From Roseinatronobacter bogoriensis DSM 18756 (GTDB taxonomy: Bacteria; Pseudomonadota; Alphaproteobacteria; Rhodobacterales; Rhodobacteraceae), in NCBI RefSeq assembly GCF_004366635.1, contig NZ_SORN01000010.1, positions 94,867 to 126,866 on the forward strand: a DNA stretch of 32,000 nt, read 5' to 3'. Below, one piece after another: positions 7,285 through 31,230 of the stretch. How positions within the stretch are numbered: the first letter of the stretch is position 1; each line of letters opens with the position of its first letter. Both the position numbers and the translations under genes were made by a program. The notes below the pieces were generated by a model. That model worked only from the letters and a program-made list of their open reading frames with translations, searched no databases and was not told where the DNA came from.

Positions 7285-8022
7285 TTAGCGCCCTCCGAAG
7301 ACCCGGAAATACAACCCGTCCGGCAAGAAATTGGCCCCGCGAAACACCAGTGAGAACAAGCGTGGAAACGCACGCTGGAATTTTTCCGAACGCATAAGTT
7401 GCATCATCTCCTCTGCCGCCTGGTCGGGCTCCATCAGGAATGGCATGTTAAAATTATTCTTGTCAGTCAGGCGGGTACGGATGAAACCGGGATTGGCCAA
7501 TTGCACATCTACGCCAGTGCCGCGCAGGTCGGCATACATCGACTCTGCCAGATGCATAAGCCCGGCTTTGCTGGAACTATAGCCAATGGACCCCGGCAAA
7601 CCCCGGTAGCCAGAAAGTGAACCTGTTATCACGATATGCCCGGCCCCGCGCGCGACCATTGCCGGCACAACCTGCCCCAAGACCCGCGCAGCCCCGGTCA
7701 GGTTGACATCAAACATGGCCTCGGTCTGCTCTGGCTGCCATTCGGTCGCCGGGAAGGGCCAGTAGACCCCGGCAAGAAACACCATCCCGTCAACCTCGCC
7801 CGCGTCTTGTGCCGCGCGAACCACCGACTCGCGATCAGACACATCGCAGGGCACGATCCGGGCCTCTCCCGGCAAACTGTCGGCCAATGCCTGCAAACTG
7901 TCGGCGCTGCGCGCACTCAGGACCAGCGCGCAGCCCGCCTTTGACAGCTTTTTCGCCAGCGCCCGGCCCAAGCCCTCCGACGCACCAATGATCCAATACG
8001 TTTTCCCCGACAGCTTTCTCAT
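7285..8022 (-). CDS. Short-chain dehydrogenase/reductase (SDR)
   Basis: This is the internal ATG (cat 8020-8022) of ORF 7285..8190. It has the Rossmann motif YWIIGASEGLGRALA and the catalytic YSSSK. Its start overlaps the upstream gene stop as ATGA (8019-8022). Confidence 0.85.
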   Translation of the reverse strand: MRKLSGKTYWIIGASEGLGRALAKKLSKAGCALVLSARSADSLQALADSLPGEARIVPCDVSDRESVVRAAQDAGEVDGMVFLAGVYWPFPATEWQPEQTEAMFDVNLTGAARVLGQVVPAMVARGAGHIVITGSLSGYRGLPGSIGYSSSKAGLMHLAESMYADLRGTGVDVQLANPGFIRTRLTDKNNFNMPFLMEPDQAAEEMMQLMRSEKFQRAFPRLFSLVFRGANFLPDGLYFRVFGGR

Positions 8023-8579
8023 GCATCCACCTTGCGCATCGTTGCGACCAGTTCGGCCACCTTGATACCAAACTTGCGAAACTGGCTGCGGTTCACAATT
8101 GTCTTGTCGTCGATCAAATACATCCAGTCCGTGACCTGCAACGCATGCCCCCCCGCACTTTCCGGCAGTCGGATCGTGTAGCTGAGGCACAGCGCGCCCC
8201 CTTCCTGCTGCCCAGAACCCTTGCCGACCAGATCATCCGCTTCGGCGGTGACGCGCCCGCCATTGCCCAGCGTCAACCGCCATTCGCGGTCTTGCTTTGT
8301 GCCGCTGTCATAGCTGAAATGTTCTGCCAGAACGCCGCGATTGCCATCCCAGCGCCCCTCCATATCGGCGGTGAAACGGGATGTGACGCGCCCCATCGGC
8401 CCATAAATCACACCCTCGCAACGGATCGGCCCCGAGAGATGCTGCTGTATGTCCATGTGCGGGGTCAGCTTGGCATAATCTTCCGGCTTCTGTGCCTGAA
8501 ACCCGATTACCCTCTGCCCGATAGCGAAGAGCGCCAGGACCAGGACACTACCGGCAAGAAAGGTCAAAAACATACTCAT
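8019..8579 (-). CDS. DUF3833-like membrane-anchored protein
   Basis: It has an N-terminal TM segment MSMFLTFLAGSVLVLALFAIG. This is followed by ...GPIRCEGVIYGPMGRVTSRFTADMEGRWDGNRGVLAEHFSYDSG..QDREWRL. It sits in the same operon position as in ChrR-linked clusters. Confidence 0.7.
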   Translation of the reverse strand: MSMFLTFLAGSVLVLALFAIGQRVIGFQAQKPEDYAKLTPHMDIQQHLSGPIRCEGVIYGPMGRVTSRFTADMEGRWDGNRGVLAEHFSYDSGTKQDREWRLTLGNGGRVTAEADDLVGKGSGQQEGGALCLSYTIRLPESAGGHALQVTDWMYLIDDKTIVNRSQFRKFGIKVAELVATMRKVDA

Positions 8580-8581
8580 GG

Positions 8582-9838
8582 TCAGCTCTCCTTCAAAGGG
8601 GTCAGCGCCAGCAACGCGATTGCCACGACCTTCAACACCGAAGGCAGGGCAGCATATAGCAGGACAAGGGTGTTCAGCGCGGTCGGGCTGTTCTCAGCCC
8701 CGGCCTCAAAGCCTGCAACCTGCAAGGCGGGGAATACCATCAGCGCGGCCAGCGCCAGAGTGGCTTTGGTGACAAAGGCCCAAAGGCCAAAGCCCTTGGC
8801 CGCTTCAGGCGACAATTCGGCCATACGCCGCGAGAAAATGGCGGGCAACAGCGTCAGGTCAGCCCCGATGCCCGCCCCCGAGATCACGCAGATCAGCGCA
8901 AACAGCGCCAGATCGCCGGGGCCAAGCGTGGTGACAAAGGCGAAACTCAGCGCCGCCAGCCCCATACCTGAAAGCAGCGCCGTCTTGGCCCCGGTGCGCC
9001 GCGCCAGCCGCGCCCAAAGCGGCGCAGAGGCCGCCGCCGACAAAAACAGCAGGATCAGCAGCACACCTTCCATGCCTTCGGCCTGCAAGACGCTTTCGGC
9101 ATAGAACAGAAACAAGGTCGAGGTAATGGCGACTGGCGTTGCATTGACCAGCGCGACGATAAGCAAGCGCCGCGCGGTGGCATCTGCGAAGACATCGCGC
9201 AGGCTAAGCCCCGCTTCTGCCACTTGCACATTGCGCGCGCGCGGCCATTCGGCACGCATCGCAGCAATCGCCAGCACTGTGATGACAACAAAGCCGATGG
9301 CAAACCCCATGAATGGCGCAGGTAGCACCGCTTCAAGCGCCACGGGCGCGGCAGCGGCCAGACATACGCCCAGCAAGGCACCAGTTTCACGCCATCCGGC
9401 CAGATAGACATGCCCGCCCTGCCCCAGCGCATCGCCGCGCGCGGCACCCGTGGCGTAAAAACAGATGGTGAGGAAGGAATAGCACGAAAACAGCAGCGTC
9501 AGGGCAATGGCAAACCATGCAAGCGGCGCGAACAGCGGCGGGACAGCAAACAGCATCAGCATTGCAGCGGCCATCACGGCAGCGGTAAGCGCGACCGCCA
9601 GCCCGCGCATATGAGTCAGCCTTGCCGCCAGCCAGCCCAGCGCTGGGTCTTGCAAGAAATCAAGCCCGCGCAACACGAACAACACCGTGCCCAGCGCGGC
9701 CAGAGATACGGCATATTCATCAACGTAGAAATACGGGGCATGAATATAGATCGGCAAACCGGCCATCGCCAGCAACCCGCCAAACAGCGAATAGCCCCAC
9801 AGGCGTGGGCGCGGGCTGGCGGCAACCGCAGTGGTCAT
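8582..9838 (-). CDS. MFS-type transporter
   Basis: This is the internal ATG (cat 9836-9838) of ORF 8582..9916, and it overlaps the DUF1365 stop as ATGA. The product is a polytopic hydrophobic protein with about 12 predicted helices by eye. Confidence 0.8.
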   Translation of the reverse strand: MTTAVAASPRPRLWGYSLFGGLLAMAGLPIYIHAPYFYVDEYAVSLAALGTVLFVLRGLDFLQDPALGWLAARLTHMRGLAVALTAAVMAAAMLMLFAVPPLFAPLAWFAIALTLLFSCYSFLTICFYATGAARGDALGQGGHVYLAGWRETGALLGVCLAAAAPVALEAVLPAPFMGFAIGFVVITVLAIAAMRAEWPRARNVQVAEAGLSLRDVFADATARRLLIVALVNATPVAITSTLFLFYAESVLQAEGMEGVLLILLFLSAAASAPLWARLARRTGAKTALLSGMGLAALSFAFVTTLGPGDLALFALICVISGAGIGADLTLLPAIFSRRMAELSPEAAKGFGLWAFVTKATLALAALMVFPALQVAGFEAGAENSPTALNTLVLLYAALPSVLKVVAIALLALTPLKES

Positions 9839-10605
9839 TGGCTGACCTCTTGTGAGGGTGGCTTTGGCCGTCCGTTGAACTTTGCCCCCCGCCACCACAG
9901 CTTGAGTGCTTGCCAATGGATCAGCGCCAGCACCCGGCGCGAACCGAAACGGCGCACCATTGCGCCCAGAATGGCACGATTTCCCAACGGACGGCGCTGC
10001 CCGGTCAGAGTGGCGACCAGCCCCGCCCCCGGTGCCTCGTGATCCTGCGTATAGCCGATACGGATGGACAGCTTGTCAGGATGGATGTTGAAATTGAACG
10101 CATAATCCCCTTCGACCGGCTGAAACGGCGAGACATAGAATATCTTCTGCGCTGCCAGCGTATCACTACCCTGAATGACCGAACGGTCGGGCTTGACGCA
10201 GAGATAGGAATGGCGGTCACCATAGGTATTGTTCACTTCGGCAATCACCGCGCGCAAGCCGCCTTGCGCGTCATGGCACAGCCAGAAACTGACCGGGTTA
10301 AACAGATGGCCCAGCACGCGCGGTTGCGTCAGCAGATAGACCACGCCATCGGTTACCCCCTCCAACTGATGGGACGCAAGCACCTCGCGGGCCCAAGCGG
10401 CCCCTCGCCCCTGACCAGGCGCGCCGCCGTGGTCGCGGTCACTCAGGCTGGCAATGTTGCGCGCATTGCGCGACATCAGGCGCGGCAGGTGCAGGTCTTC
10501 CTCGGCATTGAACAGCACGTAATCCACCGCATAGGTGAACTTGTTGCTGATCGGCCCGCGCCGCCCGTGAAAGGTCTGGCCTGCGATATGTTCTACACCA
10601 CTCAT
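9835..10605 (-). CDS. DUF1365 family protein
   Basis: The product reads ...HGRRGPISNKFTYAVDYVLF...LGHLFNPVSFWLCHD..GGLRAVIAEVNNTYGDRHSYL... with the characteristic FNPVSFW motif. Its start overlaps the upstream stop as ATGA (10602-10605). Confidence 0.85.
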   Translation of the reverse strand: MSGVEHIAGQTFHGRRGPISNKFTYAVDYVLFNAEEDLHLPRLMSRNARNIASLSDRDHGGAPGQGRGAAWAREVLASHQLEGVTDGVVYLLTQPRVLGHLFNPVSFWLCHDAQGGLRAVIAEVNNTYGDRHSYLCVKPDRSVIQGSDTLAAQKIFYVSPFQPVEGDYAFNFNIHPDKLSIRIGYTQDHEAPGAGLVATLTGQRRPLGNRAILGAMVRRFGSRRVLALIHWQALKLWWRGAKFNGRPKPPSQEVSQ

Positions 10606-13965: not shown

Positions 13966-15174
<1,209 letters not shown>

Positions 15175-21633: not shown

Positions 21634-21707
21634 GGCGAGTTGGCGGAGTGGTTACGCAGCGGATTGCAAATCCGTGTACAGGAGTTCGATTCTCCTACTC
21701 GCCTCCA
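21634..21707 (+). tRNA. tRNA-Cys (anticodon GCA)
   Basis: I folded the cloverleaf by hand. The acceptor stem is GGCGAGT/ACTCGCC and the anticodon stem is GCGGA/TCCGT with loop TTGCAAA (GCA). The T arm is AGGAG-TTCGATT-CTCCT. The discriminator is U and CCA is encoded. Confidence 0.95.
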
Positions 21708-21708
21708 T
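21663..21708 (+). repeat. attL: 46-bp direct repeat (tRNA-Cys from the anticodon loop to the 3-prime end plus 1 nt)
   Basis: ATTGCAAATCCGTGTACAGGAGTTCGATTCTCCTACTCGCCTCCAT is identical to 31185-31230. Confidence 0.85.
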
Positions 21709-21859
21709 ATATATTGTGCTTTTTCTTTGCTTGCGTACAGTCAGTTACAACATGTAGTCGCAGCAGTGCTGTACACAACTTGTACACAGAAAATGATAGG
21801 CGCTTGCGCTCTATTGTGCTAAGCTAAGTAAATCAACCACTTAGCACCAAACCCACAAA

Positions 21860-23281
21860 ATGAGTTATGGCGTCAGTTCAATAGAACTACACAGCAAGCT
21901 GCGAATCGATAAGCGCGCAGGTAGTAACAATTGGTACGCGCGTTTAACCTTGCCCAACAAAAAACGGTTGGTGAAGTCTACAAAAACAGCTGATGTGGAA
22001 GAAGCAAAAGAGGTTGCGCTGAGGCTGTACTATGAGACGGAAGCGCGCATAAAAAATAAGCTTCCAGCTACTACACGAAAATTCAAAGATGTGGCTGAGC
22101 ACGCATTACGGCGTATGAATGATGAGCTGGCGCAAGGCGTAGGCAGGCAAGCGTATAAAGATTACATCCAAGCAACCAGACGCTGGCTTATTCCTTTTTT
22201 TGGCAGCACAGACATCAGCAAAATTGACCTGCTTGCACTCAAAAATTTTGACGCTTGGCGCGCAGAGAAAATGAATAAGACTCCTGCACAAAGCACCATC
22301 AACAATCACAACGCTGCATTGAACAGGATATTAGACGAAGCAGAGCTGAACGGCTGGATCACAAAAGCGCTCCGTCCCACCTTGCTCAACAAAGGTTTAA
22401 AGACCCAAAGCAGAGGTAGCTTCACAGTACAAGAATATCGCACCATCTATGCAGCCTTACGCAACTACCACAAATCAACTGCCCATCCAAAAGCTGCAGC
22501 AACACGCGAAACGCTGCGCAACTATGTCCTGTTTCTTGCAAACACAGGCATACGACATGGCACAGAAGCAATTGGATTAAGGTGGCGAAATATTGAATGG
22601 TACTACAAAGGCGGTGAAAAATATCTTGCTGTCAATGTTGACGGGAAAACAAAGAACCGACAGACAATTGCACGCGATAGAACGAGCCGTTATTTATTTC
22701 GTCAAAGCAAACTCAACCCGCGCCTGCAATTTGATAGCTTGGATGCGCTGATTGATGCAAAAAGCGATGAGTTTGTATTTACAACGCGCTTAGGCAAACC
22801 AGCTACTGTACATAACTTAAACAGGGCATTTAATGCACTGCTTGACGAACTAAATTTGAAAACTGGCGCCGATGACAGAGAGCGTACGCTTTACAGCTGG
22901 CGTCATTTCTACGCTACAGAAGATCTAGCACGTGGTATGAGCGCTCACACGCTAAGCAAGCAACTTGGCAATAGCACAGCGATGGTGGACAAGCATTACA
23001 GTAAGTATAGCCCAGCCATCAATGCTGAGCTGCACAGCGGTAGACGAAAAAAAACAGATCAAAAAACAGATTTTTCAAGTGCACAAGCCTCAAATTCTAC
23101 TGTGCAGTTGGCTTTTCAGATGCTTAATGACGGCAAGCTTAGCGAAACAGCGCTACTGGCAACGCTTGGCGTTGAAAAAGATGGCTATACAGTAACGCAG
23201 GAGATAATGCTGGCTGCGCTACAGGCCAAAAACGATAATAAAATAGCAGAAGAAACACTACTTCTGATACTGAATGGATAA
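21860..23281 (+). CDS. int: Tyrosine-type site-specific integrase
   Basis: The 473-aa product has catalytic-domain signatures: LFLANTGIRHGTEAIGLRWRNI (Arg I), YSWRHFYATEDLARG (H-x-x-R) and LGNSTAMVDKHYSKY (Tyr). It is the first gene after the tRNA. Confidence 0.9.
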   Translation: MSYGVSSIELHSKLRIDKRAGSNNWYARLTLPNKKRLVKSTKTADVEEAKEVALRLYYETEARIKNKLPATTRKFKDVAEHALRRMNDELAQGVGRQAYKDYIQATRRWLIPFFGSTDISKIDLLALKNFDAWRAEKMNKTPAQSTINNHNAALNRILDEAELNGWITKALRPTLLNKGLKTQSRGSFTVQEYRTIYAALRNYHKSTAHPKAAATRETLRNYVLFLANTGIRHGTEAIGLRWRNIEWYYKGGEKYLAVNVDGKTKNRQTIARDRTSRYLFRQSKLNPRLQFDSLDALIDAKSDEFVFTTRLGKPATVHNLNRAFNALLDELNLKTGADDRERTLYSWRHFYATEDLARGMSAHTLSKQLGNSTAMVDKHYSKYSPAINAELHSGRRKKTDQKTDFSSAQASNSTVQLAFQMLNDGKLSETALLATLGVEKDGYTVTQEIMLAALQAKNDNKIAEETLLLILNG

Positions 23282-23331
23282 GAGAGCGCGCAACACATTT
23301 CTGCGCTGCGCAATCTCAAAGCTCAAAAAAT

Positions 23332-23754
23332 TTATGCGCTTTTGCGCTTTGCCACACTCTCAACGGCTGTATCAAACTCACCAGCTGCAGCTGCCTTGTA
23401 AAACGCCTCTAGCACAGCGTTAACTTCTGCGAGCTCTTTTACAAAAACAGCGTTACCCTTGTCAGCAATTGGCAGCGCGCGCGCGCCATATTTGCACTGG
23501 ACGTAATAGCCACCGTCCTGCTCAAAAAACCAAGCACGCACGCGCTTTTCTGCATCAACGCGTACACGCTCACCTTCTGCATTCGTTTTCCATTTACGCA
23601 CAGCAAGCACATAGTCCTTGCCCACAACAGCATCTGCCCAAACGCGCATCTGCTCCTCAATCGCGCTTAGCAGCTTAGCACGCCTTTGCTCGGATGCAGA
23701 CTTGTACGCAGTACGCTGAACTGACTTTACATTTAGCTTAGCAAGTACACTCAT
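23332..23754 (-). CDS. Island hypothetical protein (140 aa)
   Basis: This is the internal ATG (cat 23752-23754), preceded by a perfect AGGAGG. The product reads MSVLAKLNVKSVQRTAYKSASEQRRAKLLSAIEEQ.... I recognise no motif. Confidence 0.7.
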   Translation of the reverse strand: MSVLAKLNVKSVQRTAYKSASEQRRAKLLSAIEEQMRVWADAVVGKDYVLAVRKWKTNAEGERVRVDAEKRVRAWFFEQDGGYYVQCKYGARALPIADKGNAVFVKELAEVNAVLEAFYKAAAAGEFDTAVESVAKRKSA

Positions 23755-23818
23755 TTCAAACCTCCTGTGTTTGCTAATCACTTTATAAATTCAGAACACA
23801 ACAAGAACGACCGGAATG

Positions 23819-23839
23819 TTACTTCAAACTGTGAAGTAA
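23819..23839. repeat. 21-bp palindrome, copy 1 (TTACTTCA-AACTG-TGAAGTAA)
   Basis: It has 8-bp perfect arms and a 5-nt spacer. It lies in the divergent intergenic region between 23754(-) and 23910(+). It is identical to the copies at 26128-26148 and 30265-30285. Confidence 0.9.
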
Positions 23840-23909
23840 GCGCGCATCAAAAATGCACCCGCCTTAACGCATTAAGGATAAATAAAACACTAAAGTAGAA
23901 AGGATATAA

Positions 23910-24557
23910 ATGAGAACTTACAATAACTTAAATTGGAAACAACTGACACATAACGCATGGAGCAATGAGTTAGCACATGCGCACTATGACGTAACCGGCA
24001 CACTGAAATTTAACAACGGGAGGCGCGTAGGCAAGAGCACAGCAAGCAAGCTACTGACTGCGTATTGGCATAGAATGGATAAGCTGTTTTTTGGCGCGGA
24101 CGCAAAGAAGCGGATAGGTGTAGAGCGCTGGGTGTTTGCGGAGTATGGCGAGCTAGGCGACAACTTGCATTTTCACTTCAAAGCCAAGTCACCGATCGAA
24201 CCAGTTTTCTTTTGCGCTATAGCAAATTTGTTGTGGAGCAACTTAGACAACCTGACAGCATCGGCAAAGTACAACGAAATCACACCAACGATAGACGCTG
24301 TAAAATCCGCACGTTACGTTACAAAAGGCACAAAACATTTTTACTTTGACGAAATAGGCTTTAAGGCATCACACCGCAACAACACAAATATTGACGTAGA
24401 AAATTATCAGAACATACAACAGGCAAAACGCATCCAAAATCGTTTTTCTTTCCCAAAAATCATAGAGGCAATGGATTCAGTCATACAACAGGCAGCAAAT
24501 GCAGAGCGCAACATGAAGATCAGGCAAACCAAAGCTGTAGCGTCAGGCGCTCAGTAA
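23910..24557 (+). CDS. Small protein with HUH-endonuclease (rolling-circle Rep/relaxase-like) motif arrangement
   Basis: AAAGGA sits 6 nt upstream of the ATG. Three motifs occur in Rep order. Motif I-like is YDVTGTLKF. Motif II-like is DNLHFHFKA (H-hydrophobic-H). Motif III-like is SARYVTKGTK (Y-x-x-K). The coding call is solid; the function is a motif-level inference. Confidence 0.5.
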   Translation: MRTYNNLNWKQLTHNAWSNELAHAHYDVTGTLKFNNGRRVGKSTASKLLTAYWHRMDKLFFGADAKKRIGVERWVFAEYGELGDNLHFHFKAKSPIEPVFFCAIANLLWSNLDNLTASAKYNEITPTIDAVKSARYVTKGTKHFYFDEIGFKASHRNNTNIDVENYQNIQQAKRIQNRFSFPKIIEAMDSVIQQAANAERNMKIRQTKAVASGAQ

Positions 24558-24690
24558 ACACAGGCATGGAAAATTTACAGACACTAAGGCAGCGCTTTGA
24601 GGCGCTGCTAATCTTCAGTATATTCAAATCAAACAATTTGATACTTACAGAAAAACCAAACACAGAGAGTAAATACTTAAGGAGAACAGC

Positions 24691-24987
24691 ATGACGTTAC
24701 TTGAAACACTTTACAGGCACTTGAGACACAACGAGCTTACAGCGAATGCTGAGCATTTTAGCACAGAGTATTTGAATAAGAGCAAGAGCTGGTATGCTGT
24801 ACAGATGCATGAGCGACGAGAAATAAGCGCAGCTGCAGCTATCCAGTGTTTACGCTCCATACGCAGCACGCAAGCTAACGCGGCTTTGTACAGCGAACAG
24901 CAGCGTGTTGCACTGATAGCGGCAGAGCACTTGTTGACACAGCACTTGCAGCAACAGCACGCGGTGGCGGAAATTACCACTGCGTAA
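24691..24987 (+). CDS. Island hypothetical protein (98 aa)
   Basis: AAGGAG sits 6 nt upstream of the ATG. The product looks helical and Gln/Ala-rich, and I recognise no motif. Confidence 0.65.
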   Translation: MTLLETLYRHLRHNELTANAEHFSTEYLNKSKSWYAVQMHERREISAAAAIQCLRSIRSTQANAALYSEQQRVALIAAEHLLTQHLQQQHAVAEITTA

Positions 24988-25133
24988 ATGTTAAACAATG
25001 CACAATCCATAACATCTTGCCCATATTCCAAACAAATACATAGGCTTGCGTGATCTGTGTTTTCAGGTCGTCCTGCATAATGTGTGGAATTATATTGTTT
25101 AACAAGAGAACCACACATTTGGGAGCTGAACAG

Positions 25134-25712
25134 ATGAAACAGGCAAAGCTGCTAACTGACGCGGAACGCAAGCGACTGAGTGCTGTGGTGGATAGCTTGC
25201 GCCACAGCACACGCAATCACACAGCAATAGCACTGAGCTTTTACGCTGGCCTGCGTGCCTGTGAGATTGCTGCGCTGCGCATTGGCGATGTGTTTGACGC
25301 ATCGGGCGCTGTGCGTGATACGATTTACCTGTCAGCAGCACAGACCAAAGGCAGTGACAGCTGCACGGTGCTGATGAACAAGAAATTGCGCGCACAACTC
25401 AAACAGTACGCCCTACGCTACCCCAAGCAAGTCGCCAAACCCAATGCAGCACTGATTTTCAGCGGCAAGGGCGGCAGCTTTACTGCGCAAACAGTGGTCA
25501 ACCTGTTTCAGCGCTTGTACAAGCTGGCAGGCATTGAAGGTGCCAGTTCGCATTCAGGTCGTCGTCAGTTTGTAACGGAGCTGGCAGACAGGGGAATAAA
25601 TGCGCGTGTCGTGCAAGCACTTGCGCGCCACAAAAACCTCAACACCACCATGCGCTACATTGACTTGAACGAGAACAAGTTGCGCGCTGCAGTTGAGCTG
25701 ATCAATTTCTAA
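25134..25712 (+). CDS. Short tyrosine recombinase (catalytic domain only, 192 aa)
   Basis: This is the internal ATG 25134 of ORF 25050..25712, with GGGAG 8 nt upstream. Signatures are ALSFYAGLRACEIAALRIGDV (Arg I), SSHSGRRQFVTELA (H-x-x-R) and LNTTMRYIDL (Tyr). It has no N-terminal core-binding or arm-binding domain. Confidence 0.8.
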   Translation: MKQAKLLTDAERKRLSAVVDSLRHSTRNHTAIALSFYAGLRACEIAALRIGDVFDASGAVRDTIYLSAAQTKGSDSCTVLMNKKLRAQLKQYALRYPKQVAKPNAALIFSGKGGSFTAQTVVNLFQRLYKLAGIEGASSHSGRRQFVTELADRGINARVVQALARHKNLNTTMRYIDLNENKLRAAVELINF

Positions 25713-25837
25713 GCAACACAGCTATGCCTGTCAGTCATGCTGCCAGTCAGCGTCTTGAATACTTCAAAACCGCCAAAACCCTGCATTTCCTGCAAAATTG
25801 AGCAATCAATTCACCCCAAATAGCAACAGTTGCGCAG

Positions 25838-25987
25838 TTACGGTCTGTGCTTGATGGGCGGCACAGGGCTTTGTGGGCGCAGGTTACGCTTCTTGCTCCG
25901 CAGTTTGGTCATGTTTTTCTCCCAAGCAGTTTTATGGGTTGGCTTAGCCGCGCTGCGCTTTTGTGTAACGATTTCTTCTATAGTCAT
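25838..25987 (-). CDS. Possible small basic protein (49 aa)
   Basis: This is the internal ATG (cat 25985-25987), preceded by AGGAG at 5-nt spacing. The product is MTIEEIVTQKRSAAKPTHKTAWEKNMTKLRSKKRNLRPQSPVPPIKHRP. I have no similarity evidence. Confidence 0.4.
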   Translation of the reverse strand: MTIEEIVTQKRSAAKPTHKTAWEKNMTKLRSKKRNLRPQSPVPPIKHRP

Positions 25988-26126
25988 CTTTGCTCCTGGT
26001 GTTTGCAAACTGGTGGGGAGATTTGGCAAGTACTTGTACGCTTGATTTTGCGCGCCACAACTTTTTGTCCAAAACACCCCTTCCAAATGTATTTACTATA
26101 TTGACGAAGCCGCACAGCTGAGCCAG

Positions 26127-26149
26127 CTTACTTCAAACTGTGAAGTAAG
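26127..26149. repeat. 21-bp palindrome, copy 2 (arms extend to 9 bp)
   Basis: CTTACTTCA-AACTG-TGAAGTAAG ends 8 nt before the ATG at 26158. Its 3-prime arm overlaps the AAGGGA Shine-Dalgarno-like sequence. Confidence 0.9.
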
Positions 26150-26157
26150 GGACAGCT

Positions 26158-27867
26158 ATGAGCACGCAGCTAGACACACAACTGGCCTCACTTAAAGCAT
26201 TGGCTGACACTCAAACTGCCGCGTACTACATGAGCAGAGATCAGCTGCATCAAGCTTTTGTGGACACCTATTTGTGGTGGCGCGAGGCAGACAAACAAGC
26301 TGGTTACTTGGATGCCAAGTATGCGGCCGCAGGCATTACCACACGCAAGCGCAAGGCCAATAGCCCAAATTTCTATCCCCTTGTACGACTGGTGTGGAAC
26401 ATTGACCCAACTAAGCAGGCCAGCACCATCAGCAACTGGGCAAAATCTCTGCTTGCACTGCATGACGAATATACAGGAAAAACAGAGCTATACGCACAAA
26501 ATGCACGCGCTGACCTGATTAATTACATCAAAGACGAAGGCGGGCTTGCGCGGCTGCGTGGCGAAAAAGGGATGACAGCCGCAGAGCTTGCGGCAGAAGA
26601 AGCTGCTGGCGTACAACTGATGCAGCGCGGTAGACCTAAACTCACTGCCCCAGCCCCCGCCAATGTTGCCGCGTCAAAGCTTGAAGCTGTCAAAGCAATC
26701 GCGCCCAAAGCCACCATTCCCAGCTTTCCTACTGCCGTTACAAACGCTGACAACTTGGTGGTAATGCTGGGGCGCAAGAATGCTGCTGGACAGATTGAAA
26801 TTGTGGGCAGCAATTACAGCGATCAGCTTGTGCAAACGGCACTTGACGCCTGCACAGCGCTGGATCGTAGCAATGTGACGCTTAGCTTGCGTCTAATTGC
26901 AGAAGCACTTGAGCCACACGCGCTACCAGCTAAGTTGGAGAGCTACAGGAAAAAGTTTTTTGACGACAGCGAAGTAGAACGCACTGTTACGCTGCGCGAT
27001 TTGGACAAAGATGGAAATCCAAAAACTGAGGTTCAAAAAATCAAGCAAGCAACGCGCTTGCGTTACCGCCCAACAGCTACAGATTTTCTTGTCAGCAAAA
27101 CTGCAACCCCTGCAAGCCTAGTCACATATGCACGACCAAATGCTGCGTTTGTCTGCGCTGATGAGGTCATATTGCGTGGCGCAGATAGAAGCTGGATAGA
27201 AAGCGAGCTGCTGAATAAGCAAAAGCTAACACTTTATAAGGCAGAGCCAAACAATGGGCTTGCGGCGACGCAGGGCACTGTAAAGGCAACGCACACGTTG
27301 CGTTTGGATGATGCGGCCTCAGAGCATACACGCAATATCTATTTTTATGAGAAATCCACTGTGCCTGTTGAGTCAAACCAGCAGCCAAGCATCAAAAATC
27401 AAGCTGCGCTTAATTGGAATTGGGAGCTTGAAACAACTGTGCAGTGGTTGGCAGAGTTTGACGCGCAATGCGCGACTCCATACGTAAACACAATACGTGG
27501 TTTTTTCAATCGCTCCAAATTTGCCAGCATTCAACTGCAGCTAGGCAAAACCGAGTTAGAGTTGCGGTACTGGTACGAAAATGACGTGTATGCTTACAAC
27601 TACAGCCTGCCCTACAACAGCAACGCCAAACGCTTGGGCAAGAAGACTAGTACCCAACTGTTTACGGCAAATGCTAAAGACCTCGCGCTTGTGTTTGCAG
27701 TATTACCCACCCTCCCCATCACCAGCCAAAACGTGCTGCTATCTGGCAACAGCAACGTAATGCGGGTCAAGTACAGCACCGAGCTTGCTGACTATGAAAC
27801 TTACATCCCAGCTGCTGACACAGCAGGCCTGCGTGATGCGACTGCATTTGAATTGTATGGTGCGTAA
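26158..27867 (+). CDS. Orphan 569-aa protein, first gene of the island cargo block
   Basis: This is a long clean ORF. It has an N-terminal helical region of about 140 aa, an Ala/Pro-rich linker (AAELAAEEAAG...TAPAPANVAAS...) and a beta-rich remainder. I see no Walker A, HUH, DEAD or nuclease motif by eye. A single nucleotide separates the stop (TAA at 27865-27867) from the next ATG (27869). Confidence 0.8.
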   Translation: MSTQLDTQLASLKALADTQTAAYYMSRDQLHQAFVDTYLWWREADKQAGYLDAKYAAAGITTRKRKANSPNFYPLVRLVWNIDPTKQASTISNWAKSLLALHDEYTGKTELYAQNARADLINYIKDEGGLARLRGEKGMTAAELAAEEAAGVQLMQRGRPKLTAPAPANVAASKLEAVKAIAPKATIPSFPTAVTNADNLVVMLGRKNAAGQIEIVGSNYSDQLVQTALDACTALDRSNVTLSLRLIAEALEPHALPAKLESYRKKFFDDSEVERTVTLRDLDKDGNPKTEVQKIKQATRLRYRPTATDFLVSKTATPASLVTYARPNAAFVCADEVILRGADRSWIESELLNKQKLTLYKAEPNNGLAATQGTVKATHTLRLDDAASEHTRNIYFYEKSTVPVESNQQPSIKNQAALNWNWELETTVQWLAEFDAQCATPYVNTIRGFFNRSKFASIQLQLGKTELELRYWYENDVYAYNYSLPYNSNAKRLGKKTSTQLFTANAKDLALVFAVLPTLPITSQNVLLSGNSNVMRVKYSTELADYETYIPAADTAGLRDATAFELYGA

Positions 27868-27868
27868 T

Positions 27869-29137
27869 ATGGCAGGTGAAAACTTTACTGCGCAGTATGA
27901 CAACAAAGCCGTTTACTTGCCCAGCTTACAGCAAGGTTATGCAGCTTTCCCATTTAAAGACGCCAAGTCTGTACGCAACGGCGCTTTACCAAAAAATTTT
28001 CAACTGCAAGACTTGGATTTTCTGAACCCAGAAAGCAATCTATGGCACTGCAAGTATGTGCTTTACAGTGCAGGCCAGTTTAGCAGAGCGCAGATACGCA
28101 CGCGCGATATGGTTACAGAGCGCAAGGCTGGCACAGTGGTTGTTGGGGATAGCGGCGGTTATCAAATTGGCACTGGCAAAATGAAAGCTGTGCAAGGTTG
28201 GCATAAATTTGCAAATGAGCCTGACAAGATCGCACATAACTGGCTTTTAGACGTAACTATACGCGACAGAACATTACGTTGGCTCGACAGATATTGCGAC
28301 TACGCAATGACACTGGATATGCCACTTTGGGTATTGAACAATCCAAAAGCAACTGCTTCGCCCTTCAAAAACCTCTCCGCCAATCAATTGATCGATTTAA
28401 GCTATGAAAACTTGAAGTATTTTGCAAATAACAGGGGTAAAGCGACAGGTTCTAAGGCGAAATTTTTAAACATACTGCAGGATGGGGGAGGCGATACTGG
28501 GGAGATATGGTATAAACGCGTAAAAGACTTTGATTTTGAAGGGTGGGCATTTGGCGGTGATACAAAGAATGGCATTGCGCCCTTGCTAAAGTGGGTTCGG
28601 CGCTTGCTAGACGATGGAAAAATTAACAACAAAACTGAGTGGCTTCATGTGTTGATGATGTCACCGCCCATAAATAGCGTGCTGCTCACTGCCCTTCAAA
28701 AGCGACTGCGTGAGATATTGGGCAACAACATTACGGTAAGCTACGACAGTAGCAGCCCTTTTCAAACGTCAGGTATCAGCCAACAGATCGCAGTGCTACC
28801 TGAACTTACAAGCGACATAAAAACTTGGCGTATTAAGAGCGTTCAATACCCACAGCATCCGAAATACACAAGCAAGACAGATATTCGCTACTTGGAAAAT
28901 ATTGTCTCGCCTGTGACCAAACTCGTCAGTATCAACGACTTTCATGCCAAAGCTGGACCAATGGAAACCAAGTTTCTGGACTCGCTAGCACAGCATTTGC
29001 TGACCAATCATAATCTATATGTTTATCACAAAGCAGCTATTGATGCGTGTAATATTGTATTCAAGCGCAACGAATCTGAGCGCATACTTAAGAAAGTCAG
29101 CGCTAATTTGCTTTACATTAAGAATTTCCTTCAGTAA
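27869..29137 (+). CDS. Divergent tRNA-guanine transglycosylase (TGT)-superfamily / DpdA-like protein
   Basis: The start is the ATG at 27869, in frame within ORF 27785..29137. Four motifs occur in TGT order. VVVGDSGGYQIGTG corresponds to DSGGFQ, FEGWAFGGDTKNG to GYAIGG, and TEWLHVLMMSPP to the LH/YL.G.G.P strand. VSYDSSSPFQTS corresponds to the FDC/FDSA nucleophile-Asp motif. No CxCxxC...H zinc site is visible. Confidence 0.6.
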   Translation: MAGENFTAQYDNKAVYLPSLQQGYAAFPFKDAKSVRNGALPKNFQLQDLDFLNPESNLWHCKYVLYSAGQFSRAQIRTRDMVTERKAGTVVVGDSGGYQIGTGKMKAVQGWHKFANEPDKIAHNWLLDVTIRDRTLRWLDRYCDYAMTLDMPLWVLNNPKATASPFKNLSANQLIDLSYENLKYFANNRGKATGSKAKFLNILQDGGGDTGEIWYKRVKDFDFEGWAFGGDTKNGIAPLLKWVRRLLDDGKINNKTEWLHVLMMSPPINSVLLTALQKRLREILGNNITVSYDSSSPFQTSGISQQIAVLPELTSDIKTWRIKSVQYPQHPKYTSKTDIRYLENIVSPVTKLVSINDFHAKAGPMETKFLDSLAQHLLTNHNLYVYHKAAIDACNIVFKRNESERILKKVSANLLYIKNFLQ

Positions 29138-29170
29138 CGTAAATGTGCCACAATCTATCAAGACCACAAA

Positions 29171-29902
29171 ATGAACATCAATAATGTTATCGCTAGATCC
29201 TTGGCACACCTTAAACAAAGCTTGAAAAAATTTAGAGATCGCTTTTTAGCTCAGCTAGGGCTTACGCGGATAAAAGAATTGTCGGCGCTCGAAAAAAAGC
29301 TTGAAATTTGTAGCGCCACAAGCGACTACTTATTTGATTTGAGTTTTTCTGACTATATCCTTGAAGAAATTTTTGAGCGAGCTGAGAGAGTAAAACAAAC
29401 AGAGATTTCTGGAAAACTTCACACTAAGCGATTTAGAAATCGCTTTGGAGTATCGTCTGGATTAACTAAGAAGCAAGCTTTCTTCTTAGAGCTTGATTGC
29501 TTATCGAGAATTGCGGAGTGCTGTGACATTGAAGCACAGCAACATTTTCCCATCCTTATCGATTATGACACGGAGCAGTTTACTATCACAACCTCGCACA
29601 ACGGAATATCTTTGAAGGATATTCGAGAAGTGATCGCAGTTCCAGACTTCAACTGTCAACTTTCCCTAATTCTTTCAACTCTCAGCAAGGCGCAAGTGGC
29701 GCACTTAGATTGTCACCCAAATGGCAAAAACCTAACTGTTTCTAACGAAGGTATAATTTCTTTGATTGATTTTGACAATGCGCAAGTAAAAGATCAGCCA
29801 TTCAATCACATAATGAGAAATCGTTACGAAAATAATTTTCAAAAAACAAAGGAAAAGATGGTTTTCGCTGTTGTAAATTGTAAATTCTTAATCTTGAAGT
29901 AG
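29171..29902 (+). CDS. Small protein-kinase-like-fold protein (Kdo/APH/RIO-like catalytic loop)
   Basis: The product contains ...AQVAHLDCHPNGKNLTVSNEGIISLIDFDNA... This resembles the H-x-D-x-H-P-x-N catalytic loop plus the IDFD metal-binding motif of kinase-like phosphotransferases. I see no clear glycine loop. The gene is very AT-rich relative to the rest of the island. Confidence 0.45.
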   Translation: MNINNVIARSLAHLKQSLKKFRDRFLAQLGLTRIKELSALEKKLEICSATSDYLFDLSFSDYILEEIFERAERVKQTEISGKLHTKRFRNRFGVSSGLTKKQAFFLELDCLSRIAECCDIEAQQHFPILIDYDTEQFTITTSHNGISLKDIREVIAVPDFNCQLSLILSTLSKAQVAHLDCHPNGKNLTVSNEGIISLIDFDNAQVKDQPFNHIMRNRYENNFQKTKEKMVFAVVNCKFLILK

Positions 29903-30120
29903 TGAGAAAAATTATTCTTAATTTATTGGTATGACGCCGAAAATAGGTAATTTAGCAGCTAACTATACAGCGCCATGACGCTTATTCATTTTTTAATATA
30001 AATAGGTATATATTCACTTATCACTTAATCAAATCGCAGCTATACCCTGACTCATCAACCGCACTATCTGTTTTTCCGGAATCTGTCCATAAATTTTAAA
30101 CAACACTTAACGCCCTGCGC

Positions 30121-30143
30121 CTTACATCGGAAAGCGATGTAAG
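30121..30143. repeat. Variant hairpin sharing the outer arms of the 21-bp palindrome
   Basis: CTTACATCG-GAAAG-CGATGTAAG has 9-bp perfect arms and a 5-nt loop. The outer CTTAC...GTAAG is the same as in the copy-2 palindrome. Confidence 0.7.
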
Positions 30144-30263
30144 CATAGCCGCAGCCACGCTGTAAGGCGCCCGACAAGCGCGACCAAAGCCACAGCTATA
30201 GCAACAAAGCCAAAAAAAATCGCACCACACCCTGTATGAAGCTGTTTGACGCTGCTAGTCGCC

Positions 30264-30286
30264 GTTACTTCAAACTGTGAAGTAAC
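30264..30286. repeat. 21-bp palindrome, copy 3 (arms extend to 9 bp)
   Basis: GTTACTTCA-AACTG-TGAAGTAAC lies 20 nt beyond the stop of the minus-strand gene 30306..30758. The loop orientation is the same as in copies 1 and 2. Confidence 0.9.
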
Positions 30287-30305
30287 GCACGGCCGCACAG
30301 CTTGC

Positions 30306-30758
30306 TTACGGAAGCAAAATCTTCATGCTTGCTTCCAGCTGCGCCTTTAGCCCATCGTCATGCAACAAAACTGTTTCAAGTACATCTTCTTCCACCACAA
30401 GCACAGCATCGACCACTTCACTTCCCGTAACTACCATAAAATGCACAATATTTCCGCCTAAGTCCCATGCATATCGCAAACTTAAAGCCTGCTTGTTCAC
30501 CTTAACCTGCGCCGGCTCACCTTCACTGTTTGAATGCAGCAAGGGATTGAAAGCTTGATAAGCAACGAGCTTTAGGTTTGGCGCACAATTTGGCAAAAGC
30601 GCGAAACCTTGTTGCTCTTTGCCTTCCGCTGCCAAAGCACGCAGTGTTTCCCACAAATCAGCATTCCAATGCTTGCGCCAGCGCAGCCTAAATCTGTCAT
30701 GCACCACATCAAGCAAGCTTCTAAATTCACTGCTTCTGTTTTCGTATGCTTCTATCAT
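30306..30758 (-). CDS. Island hypothetical protein (150 aa)
   Basis: The start is the ATG (cat 30756-30758), with GAGG 6 nt upstream. The track ORF begins one codon earlier at a GTG. I recognise no motif. Confidence 0.7.
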   Translation of the reverse strand: MIEAYENRSSEFRSLLDVVHDRFRLRWRKHWNADLWETLRALAAEGKEQQGFALLPNCAPNLKLVAYQAFNPLLHSNSEGEPAQVKVNKQALSLRYAWDLGGNIVHFMVVTGSEVVDAVLVVEEDVLETVLLHDDGLKAQLEASMKILLP

Positions 30759-31184
30759 CACTCACCTCGTCTATGCTGGCTCGTTTCTAATCATCGGTTC
30801 GCCACAAACCTGCATTTGCCAGCCGTTTGCCTGCTCAACCCATCAAAACCTAGCCCACACGCAAACGCATGACTAGTCAGAACAAGTAGCAGCACAGCAC
30901 AAAAAGCCATCTAAACAACGCGCTACAGTACTCGACCTGCTATGCTGCCACCTGGCTGCGCAAAAACTGAAAGCTTGCGCTGTAGCCCCGCCGCTGTGCA
31001 CTGCTAGACGCCACAGCATTGAATTATGGTGAAAGCTTCTGCTTGCAAAGTATTCGCGCCACTGTCATTGTCGAATTATTGGAAAGTATTCACGCTTGTG
31101 CATATGTTGTACACAAATATGTACGCAGTGACTTTTTTTAACATTAACATGTTGATTTTTAATGGTTATACTTTTTGTTGCTCT

Positions 31185-31230
31185 ATTGCAAATCCGTGTA
31201 CAGGAGTTCGATTCTCCTACTCGCCTCCAT
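31185..31230 (+). repeat. attR: 46-bp partial tRNA-Cys copy
   Basis: It is identical to 21663-21708. The sequence upstream of 31185 does not continue the tRNA, so this is a remnant or duplicated target and not a second gene. Confidence 0.85.

Follow-up and report, generated by a model that had tools for sequence, protein, structure and literature searches.

A palindromic box linked to a TGT-fold operon in tRNA-Cys-integrated islands of Rhodobacterales, a candidate operator-like site

Introduction

In the IncP plasmid RK2 (KorB OB sites) and in N15 (centromere/operator palindromes), short palindromes are dispersed over a mobile element and one element-encoded binding protein acts on many operons. 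Here we report an analysis of a 21-bp palindrome, TTACTTCAAACTGTGAAGTAA (hereafter the box), which occurs three times in a genomic island within a 32-kb stretch of DNA (the window, i.e., the whole stretch that was analysed) from Roseinatronobacter (Rhodobaca) bogoriensis, the host to which proteins with 100% identity point. The likeness to the KorB and N15 systems is that several identical short palindromes are scattered across a single mobile element and lie for the most part in promoters or between genes; unlike in those systems, no ParB/KorB-like protein is detectable in the island, the 21-bp box has another sequence, and it is tied to a two-gene operon (p569-p422), the second product of which is predicted to have the fold of tRNA-guanine transglycosylases (TGT). 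An original prediction, made from the sequence of the window, had proposed three possible roles for the box, namely operators of an island regulator, folded single-stranded DNA sites for an HUH-like protein encoded in the island, and attC-like recombination sites for an adjacent short tyrosine recombinase.

Several other systems need to be considered for comparison. The activator sites of P2/P4 late promoters share a TGT-N12-ACA dyad, which is bound by Ogr/Delta. As in these phages, a shared palindrome lies upstream of several operons of a small integrative element and could allow co-regulation by a helper or by the element itself; however, no helper is known for the island, sequence and spacing are different, and the box abuts the Shine-Dalgarno (SD) sequence instead of lying at approximately -55. 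Integron attC sites are imperfect palindromes of 57-141 bp with the organization R''/L''...L'/R', and are recombined as folded single strands by the full-length integrase IntI, which has an extra domain. Repetitive extragenic palindromes (REPs) number from tens to hundreds per genome and lie on either side of a RAYT gene.

The box gives access to what appears to be an undescribed family of tRNA-Cys-integrated elements of 6-10 kb. They are apparently abundant in Rhodobacterales, with hundreds in members of this order from marine and soda-lake habitats. These islands combine an HUH Rep-like protein, a tyrosine recombinase that consists of the catalytic domain only, a two-gene module with a TGT/DpdA fold, and defence-type cargo (restriction-modification, NACHT, and T5orf172 genes). 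The box is the one conserved cis element shared by the operon with the TGT fold, the replication module, and the cargo. Its binder would reveal what activates the islands, perhaps a helper phage, and would offer the first functional clue to p569-p422; neither the HUH-like protein nor the short recombinase, two of the three partners proposed for it, is a good candidate.

Results and discussion

Boxes form an island-restricted family

Our analysis suggests that the box is a selected, lineage-specific recognition element tied to the p569-p422 operon. It may serve as an operator-like control site on duplex DNA that is bound by a dimeric sequence-specific protein, a tentative reading to which we assign a probability of roughly 0.45.

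As the original prediction had reported, the window contains exactly three copies of TTACTTCAAACTGTGAAGTAA, all on the plus strand (copies 1-3; Table 1), and no further match with up to three mismatches was found either in the window or in 100 shuffles. The central five nucleotides have one orientation across all three copies, and the flanks are not conserved past approximately 2 bp. A search for the exact 21-mer in 185,579 species genomes (one per species) and in IMG/VR returned no matches, and within the window the host DNA (21.6 kb) holds no copy with up to three mismatches; a genome-wide repeat of the REP/bacterial interspersed mosaic element type, the possibility that had been considered most damaging to the prediction, was rejected on these grounds, with the caveat that the full genome of the host was not among the sequences scanned. 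In related loci as well, boxes occur only inside islands. An 11-mer, GCCGCACAGCT, had been pointed out just outside copies 2 and 3, and it is indeed present at both places (26109-26119 and 30292-30302). Matches with one mismatch are not above chance, and among close relatives L002 has a left copy with one mismatch and no right copy, whereas L001 has none on the left. Thus, GCCGCACAGCT is probably incidental and not a functional element, and we dropped the idea that it could be a target-site duplication or a flank with a function.

Related loci (designated L001 and so on) were collected by homology to the HUH-like protein (5 loci), the short recombinase (80 metagenomic loci), and p422/p569 (16 more). 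The box census covered the window and these loci, 545 kb in all, and gene-linkage counts were made for those 50 loci in which the sequence extended 1.5 kb or more past the recombinase gene. The core order DUF6641 (minus strand), HUH-like gene, DUF6626, recombinase, and small open reading frame (ORF; minus strand) is widespread among them. Many of the related islands lie at a tRNA-Cys 3' repeat, in tandem in L004, L032/L033, and L005, and L001 is located beside a prophage. Cargo in the family includes a BsaWI-like restriction-modification system (L001), NACHT (L096/97), T5orf172 (L098), radical-SAM/HxsD (L091/92), and secreted Sel1-repeat (L019 and L095) genes. We found no relevant literature on DUF6641, DUF6626, or this type of island.

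The census revealed a family consensus, TTAC-W-TC-N7-GA-W-GTAA, with 59 copies in the 545 kb (0-2 in shuffles) and 2-5 copies per island. The 21-mer of the window represents one variant of this family-wide box, type A (TTACTTCA-AACTG/AACTT/AAGTT-TGAAGTAA). Type A' is TTACATCA-AACTT-TGATGTAA, and the commonest variant, type B, is TTACATCG-GAAAA/GAAAG/GAAAC/GTTTC/TTTTC-CGATGTAA. The related hairpin that had been noticed near copy 3 is a type-B box, TTACATCGGAAAGCGATGTAA. Among islands that share only 40-50% protein identity, 12 of 14 arm positions are fixed; the only variable arm positions, 5/17 and 8/14, nearly always change symmetrically, with uncompensated hybrid-arm sites in L096 and L042. 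All three copies of the window are identical over 21/21 positions to those at the same relative places in L002, an island with an overall identity of only 87%, and copy 3 is identical between the two although its 40-bp flanks are unrelated (12/40 and 11/40). In L001, type A is found upstream of the HUH-like gene and type A' at the other two places. In addition, L003 contains only the right half of a type-B box straight after the recombinase stop codon (7735-7750) and an 'inside-out' arrangement, CCCAATGTAAC-N13-GTTACATTGGG, near attR (8393-8427).

Perfect 10+1+10 palindromes, TTACTTCAAACTTTGAAGTAA and TTACATCAAACTTTGATGTAA, are among the variants. The original prediction had noted the same loop orientation of the three copies. 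This is true of the island in the window but is not a conserved property, since the centre flips relative to the downstream gene between related islands (AAA in L010 and TTT in L006; C in L021 and G in L036) and also flips after the recombinase gene between islands with the same flanks. L007 carries tandem boxes with a 33-bp (three-turn) period, three copies (7466-7552) followed by a 1.1-kb insert, which encodes a 164-aa membrane protein, and two more copies (8634-8687), the repeat unit being the 21-bp box plus CGGAGGGTGTGC. Weaker neighbouring boxes at helical-phase spacing were found only in L007 and are not a general feature. Perfect palindromes, flipping centres, and 33-bp arrays would fit duplex recognition by a symmetric dimer, and they fit a strand-specific signal in single-stranded DNA or RNA less well. 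A de novo palindrome search of the box-less islands detected no other recurrent palindrome.

The box follows the p569-p422 module

A box was present in all 12 loci with the p569-p422 module and in only 3 of the 38 without it (p569 present with box, 12; present without box, 0; absent with box, 3; absent without box, 35). The same four counts were 11, 11, 4, and 24 for the HUH-like gene, 12, 11, 3, and 24 for DUF6626, and 10, 7, 5, and 28 for DUF6641. The short recombinase (71-85% identical) is encoded in all 50 loci, 35 of which have no box. In every p569 homologue of the lineage (15 metagenomic loci, L096/97, and L098-101), a box is located 9-51 bp upstream of the start, which makes this position (P2) universal. 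L021/L034, L096/97, and L098-101 have the box at p569 and none upstream of the HUH-like gene, and L024, a close relative of L021/L034, lacks both p569 and the box. The type of the box (A or B) follows the similarity of p569 and not that of other island proteins. Because the association with the p569 start region is 100% over a protein divergence of 40-50% identity and the copies are exactly conserved between the window and L002, selection appears to act on the box; these data indicate that its target would be the sequence of the box, not structure alone.

The original prediction had treated p569 and p422 as cargo bracketed by copies 2 and 3. In distant relatives (44-48% p422 identity), the p569-p422 pair is directly divergent from DUF6641 and adjoins DUF6626 and the recombinase, and hence the pair is part of the ancestral core of the island superfamily and not cargo. 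These distant relatives have no TTAC box; a single different palindrome is found in their DUF6641/p579 divergent region, which is consistent with a putative ancestral operator at the DUF6641/p579 promoter.

Two further positions recur. P0, the divergent DUF6641/HUH intergenic region, is occupied in approximately 12 islands, including L001, L002, L006, L007, L010-12, and L015-18; copy 1 of the window, which had correctly been placed between the 140-aa gene and the HUH-like gene, lies there, approximately 70 bp upstream of the latter. P1, just behind the recombinase gene and occupied in many islands, is seen as a 27-29-bp block that is absent from the window, L002, L004, L029, and L032. Besides, each of three unrelated minus-strand cargo genes in L019 has its own box approximately 25 bp upstream of the start. 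Of 42 distinct sites, 16 (38%) are located within 60 bp before a gene start with an SD sequence, compared with 9.6% of random positions, and sites in 5' regions reach approximately 60% once those at P0 are added. Copy 2 is located at P2 and overlaps the ribosome-binding site of p569, as had been noted. Conserved blocks are present upstream of P2 (AAGTACTT, GAACCCATTTC, GTATTTAT, and CTTG), and the P2 box lies approximately 30 bp after a TATTTAT block.

An operator-like site or a transcript element

Near-identical palindromes are thus found in the 5' regions of several operons, as expected for a set of operators, and a minority (the post-recombinase sites and copy 3) do not fit. Among the three roles originally proposed, that of an operator is the best supported, given that boxes occur at every p569 start, in the DUF6641/HUH regions, and before the cargo genes of L019. 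In the mechanism that we propose, a dimeric protein would recognize the box on duplex DNA and regulate transcription. The anchor position is directly upstream of the SD sequence of the p569-p422 operon, and the same box recurs in the divergent DUF6641/HUH promoter region, before cargo genes that were acquired, and at either end of the non-coding module on the right-hand side. Such reuse would bring the transcription units of the island together in a single regulon, or would stop read-through from one module into another. Candidate binders are p569, the product of the small basic ORF, DUF6641, and a helper-phage or host factor.

A number of observations weigh against an operator. At P1, the box follows the recombinase stop codon by 5-6 bp and is flanked by convergent genes instead of being at a 5' end, and copy 3 and the type-B box of the window are likewise located between convergent genes. 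A promoter scan detected no usable promoter near any copy in the window, and no recognizable DNA-binding domain was found in any island protein by sequence-based searches. The box is placed relative to the start codon and SD sequence (9-32 bp) and not to a located promoter, a placement equally expected of an RNA element in the 5'-untranslated region (UTR) or of the edge of a cassette. The occurrence of identical boxes within non-homologous flanks, together with the box-flanked inserts in L007 and L019, requires some recombinational spread, for which regulation alone gives no explanation. Finally, the conserved 7-bp half-sites have a centre-to-centre spacing of 14 bp, which is unusual for a simple helix-turn-helix dimer.

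The box may alternatively act as an RNA hairpin in the 5' UTR beside the SD sequence (and at some 3' ends), controlling translation or mRNA stability and maybe being bound, in analogy to stem-loop-binding TGT enzymes, by a p422/p569 complex. The tight and constant distance (9-32 bp) to the SD sequence and start codon at p569 and at the L019 cargo genes would be accounted for, and the conserved TATTTAT upstream of P2 would place the palindrome inside the transcript; some copies (P1 and copy 3) are at operon 3' ends, and the linkage to the TGT-fold module of p422 points in the same direction. Nevertheless, we consider this explanation unlikely. The orientation of the centre relative to the gene is not conserved, perfect 10+1+10 palindromes gain nothing as hairpins, and the arm sequence is kept with almost no free covariation and no evident G-U pattern. 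The hairpin is also weak (only -6.1 kcal/mol for type A, with G-C in two of the eight stem pairs), and the 33-bp arrays of L007 suggest duplex binding. A T-run is missing after every copy, and a terminator scan picked up none of them; with the low hairpin energy, this rules out intrinsic (Rho-independent) terminators, in agreement with the earlier view that the copies would be poor ones.

If the box is recognized by a p569-p422 complex, another idea may be put forward: p569 would read the palindrome and p422 would swap the invariant G of GA-W-GTAA, on both strands, for a 7-deazaguanine-type base, either in DNA or in the transcript. If true, site-specific base modification would be an epigenetic switch or a self-mark for island operons, and no transglycosylase would have been put to sequence-addressed regulatory use before. 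The idea is built on the co-occurrence of box and module (12/12 versus 3/38) and on the box type following p569 similarity, both of which are confounded by physical linkage, and we regard it as a long shot.

The TGT-like assignment of p422 comes from structure prediction. The p422 family comprises 1061 clusters at 90% identity, all annotated as hypothetical and always paired with p569. It has no Pfam domain; 33 members gave no hit to Pfam TGT at E values up to 1, and there was no NCBIfam (DpdA) hit. An AlphaFold2 (AF2) model with a predicted local distance difference test (pLDDT) score of 90.7 matched tRNA-guanine transglycosylase 1wkd (E 4e-7, probability 1.00) and DpdA 7ui4 (E 4.8e-5) in Foldseek, and p422 is accordingly modelled as a TIM barrel of the TGT/DpdA type. 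Invariant motifs of the family are GDSGG-x-Q, LQD, GW, and YDSS, and the p422 motifs DSGG-x-Q, QDxGG, GWAFGG, and YDSSSP are in what we take to be the order of the TGT catalytic motifs. An earlier candidate, an actin-like ATPase suggested by DxGG motifs, was dropped for the TGT fold after the fold search. While the TIM-barrel match and motif order resemble TGT/DpdA enzymes, p422 differs from them in having no evident conserved zinc-site cysteines and in its partner, an orphan 569-aa protein instead of DpdB, and the island has no preQ0 synthesis genes. For p569 (at least 103 clusters, all hypothetical), no match was found in Pfam, NCBIfam, PHROG, PADLOC, or PDB. Sequence and profile searches of p422, p569, DUF6641, and the HUH-like protein against PDB returned nothing, and PADLOC gave no hits. 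Homologues of p422 with 26-30% identity were also observed in jumbo phages (the Pseudomonas PA5oct group and Sinorhizobium Phosso) and on an Azospirillum megaplasmid.

Variable content and the recombination hypothesis

The original prediction had suggested examining whether the content between the copies varies in related islands. It does so after p422 in every close relative: the window has p243 there, L001 a BsaWI-like endonuclease and a methylase, L002 nothing, L096 a NACHT gene, L098 genes for 177-aa and 172-aa proteins, and L099 genes for 181-aa, 341-aa, and 485-aa proteins. The left limit of this variable zone is the p422 stop codon, where no box is located. Cassette-like single-gene units bounded by boxes were observed three times in L019 and once in L007, and none was found in the window, L098, or L099. 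Several inserts have no flanking boxes, namely T5orf172 in L098, a 176-aa gene in L099, and p151 in the window.

Such variability raises the possibility that the box is an attC/lox-like recombination site of the short recombinase or of another process, with the segments between boxes being cassettes. Its 7-7-7 or 8-5-8 architecture resembles the core site of tyrosine recombinases, and the P1 box near the recombinase stop codon looks like a discrete 27-29-bp insertion when compared with box-less islands. As in integrons and Vibrio chromosomal repeats, a palindrome occurs approximately 10-30 bp upstream of successive unrelated genes (L019) and beside a tyrosine recombinase gene, with variable content in between. 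The one-gene insert between identical boxes in L007, the three units of gene, box, and flank in L019, the different content between p422 and the right-hand box in each of the window, L001, L002, L098, and L099, the identity of copy 3 in L002 and the window within unrelated flanks, and the hybrid arms in L096 and L042 are all compatible with this possibility. In contrast to attC, however, the box is a near-perfect palindrome of 21 bp, the recombinase has 192 aa, the conserved flank of the box is one-sided, and there is no covarying structure. Most of the recombinase-bearing islands are box-less; the recombinases in those 35 loci are catalytically intact.

Repeats and break points also overrun the palindrome. 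Between the window and L001, identity is 85% in the core and only 72% in the small ORF-p569-p422 region, with the break just after the recombinase gene. Mosaic break points are 38-75 bp from the palindrome, and break points and repeat ends taken together are 38-110 bp from it. In L034 and L021, a 220-bp direct duplicate downstream of p422 (L034, 11456-11660 versus 14821-15024; L021, 6128-6332 versus 10091-10294) contains the region upstream of p569, the box, the SD sequence, and the first 75 coding bp with ATG changed to ATA; it is the footprint left when the entire module underwent tandem duplication or recombination of the Campbell type. The repeats in L019 share at least 60 bp of flank beyond the palindrome. 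Moreover, the inserts of L098 and L099 are not flanked by boxes, the p569-p422 segment bracketed in the window belongs to the ancestral core, and the flips of the centre are not predicted by site-specific inversion. We therefore believe that a cassette role for the box, which the variable content, the L007 insert, and copy 3 of L002 support weakly at best, is improbable.

The short recombinase is the most conserved protein of the island, with invariant R41, K72, H140xxR143, H166, and Y175, and has 289 relatives in JGI metagenomes, whereas a recombinase-based scan of IMG/VR viral contigs found nothing. Its scores, which also weigh against a cassette role, are far under the cutoffs for integron integrases (TIGR02249, 36 bits with a cutoff of 265; NF011946, 21 with a cutoff of 435), and its near full-length match to FimB/FimE-type invertases is also far under the cutoff (52.6 versus 221 bits). 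In size (approximately 190-200 aa) and in its location beside short repeats that bracket a promoter-containing segment, the system is similar to FimB/FimE switches, and in L005 opposite centres are found in the two boxes on either side of the segment with the small ORF and promoter; on the other hand, all boxes of the window have one orientation, and the same two boxes are direct in L017-19.

A different conserved inverted repeat adjoins the recombinase gene. This block, (G)GCAT-TTGCGCT-ATGCC(T), has 5-6-bp inverted arms around 7 bp and was observed in 20 of 33 distinct HUH-type loci, including box-less ones. It is also the site of the 85%/72% mosaic break that separates the window from L001; the loose pattern is not rare by chance. 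It is a speculative candidate for the real target of the short recombinase, perhaps a dif/res-like site.

An absence of any dedicated function should also be considered, in which case the box would be a selfish or unstable palindrome spread by template switching or illegitimate recombination. Presence/absence polymorphism at one spot after the recombinase gene, flipping centres, and identical copies in unrelated flanks could be explained in this way. We regard it as a very remote option, as selection is indicated both by the complete association of the box with the start of p569 and by the three copies that L002 and the window share without a single change.

The HUH-like protein is a poor partner

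A nick or recognition hairpin for the HUH-like Rep, acting at a rolling-circle origin or terminus or in a REP/RAYT-like manner, was the remaining proposal. The 215-aa protein has invariant H87, H89, Y136, and K139 in 18 sequences (HUH and YxxK motifs). Its AF2 model (pLDDT 86.8) gave named BFVD matches that were all rolling-circle Reps (Microvirus/CRESS; E 3e-4 to 2e-2) and no significant match in a Foldseek search against PDB, which provides moderate support for a predicted rolling-circle Rep fold. A short palindrome repeated near an HUH-family gene is reminiscent of REP/RAYT systems, and copy 1 has counterparts upstream of the gene in approximately 12 islands. However, boxes are uncorrelated with the HUH-like gene and are restricted to islands, unlike genome-wide REPs: 11 of the 22 HUH-bearing loci with enough flank are box-less, and L005, L021, L034, L098, and L099 have the HUH-like gene and boxes elsewhere but none upstream of it. 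Furthermore, the centre has no fixed strand orientation, and perfect palindromes form no useful loop. A role in HUH function is essentially excluded, and the proposal of a folded single-stranded HUH site has been largely refuted.

Two other features of this gene were observed. At 23862-23883, CCTTAACGCATTAAGG is followed by ATAAATA approximately 27 bp upstream of the HUH start, and CCTT..AAGG plus ATAAATA recur before the HUH-like genes of other islands; this sequence may be related to Rep or may be the HUH promoter/-10. The possibility that CCTTAA-N4-TTAAGG is a Rep hairpin common to all islands was downgraded, since it is a perfect palindrome in only 4 of 23 loci. The public annotation of the gene (P0004, 160 aa, 74% coverage) is apparently N-terminally truncated relative to the 215-aa family, the first 55 residues of which are well conserved.

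Layout of the island in the window

The 3' 46 bp of tRNA-Cys recur at the right-hand end and the guanine-cytosine (GC) content drops from approximately 0.60 to approximately 0.45 between the two repeat points, and thus the window holds a complete island of 9.5 kb (21709-31230; Table 1). Copy 3, which had been described as lying beyond the last cargo gene, does not lie beyond the last gene of the island, because p151 is located to its right and inside the attL-attR bounds.

Table 1. Coordinates of the island features in the window
Feature	Coordinates	Strand	Remarks
tRNA-Cys(GCA), integration target	21634-21707	+	ARAGORN; Rfam tRNA 64 bits
attL, 46-bp direct repeat (tRNA-Cys 3' part)	21663-21708	+	100% identical repeat; GC drop here
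Island integrase, 473 aa, tyrosine recombinase	21860-23281	+	PF00589, phrog_1 integrase
DUF6641 protein, 140 aa, divergent from HUH-like gene	23332-23754	-	PF20346 just under cutoff; conserved in 23 loci; candidate regulator
Box copy 1 (type A)	23819-23839	+	Divergent DUF6641/HUH intergenic region, position P0
HUH-like, predicted rolling-circle Rep-like protein, 215 aa	23910-24557	+	HUH/YxxK motifs, model, viral structure matches
DUF6626 protein, 98 aa	24691-24987	+	PF20331; in 41 loci
Short tyrosine recombinase, 192 aa, catalytic domain only	25134-25712	+	PF00589 E 1e-24
Conserved block GCAACACAGCTATGCC straight after recombinase stop codon	25713-25728		Consensus (G)GCAT-TTGCGCT-ATGCC
Small basic ORF, 49 aa, divergent from p569	25838-25987	-	Called in L002
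Box copy 2 (type A)	26128-26148	+	9 bp before p569 ATG, overlaps AAGGGA SD sequence; position P2
p569, orphan, obligate p422 partner	26158-27867	+	No family match
p422, predicted TGT/DpdA fold (TIM barrel)	27869-29137	+	AF2 model and Foldseek
p243, low-GC variable cargo gene	29171-29902	+	Weak kinase-like hits; absent from L001, L002, L098, L099
AT-rich gap	29903-30121		
Type-B box TTACATCGGAAAGCGATGTAA	30122-30142		Commonest family variant; opens right-end module
Right-end module, non-coding, conserved	30143-30264		Between type-B box and copy 3
Box copy 3 (type A)	30265-30285	+	143 bp from type-B box; between convergent genes
p151, 151 aa, variable island gene	30306-30761	-	Outside copy 2-3 bracket; absent from L001
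attR, second 46-bp tRNA-Cys 3' repeat	31185-31230	+	

At the right-hand end, nhmmer and alignment showed that 30122-30264 is homologous to a non-coding module in L005, L011, L017, L018, L019, L001, and L028, and equivalent box pairs 142-175 bp apart are present in L098/L099 beside the integrase 3' end. The module had no Rfam match, and RNAalifold detected no covariation in it. On its minus strand (30122-30298), an ORF with a hydrophobic stretch ends at a TAA inside the type-B palindrome (…RLxxCLHRFPM*), comparable with L011, L017, L018, and L019, and the window and L017 differ by an in-frame 3-nt indel. It could encode a small membrane peptide or leader, or could reflect mere nucleotide conservation; with few copies only and nucleotide conservation being sufficient, the ORF was set aside.

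The region 29003-30000, which contains p243 and the following gap, has a GC content of 0.36-0.41, compared with approximately 0.45-0.51 in the rest of the island. The weak kinase-like hits of p243 were to Kdo kinase NF002475 (E 1e-3) and a PHROG kinase (E 2e-3), and none of the close relatives has the gene. The island probably acquired p243 recently, in place of a minus-strand gene for which the type-B box had formerly served.

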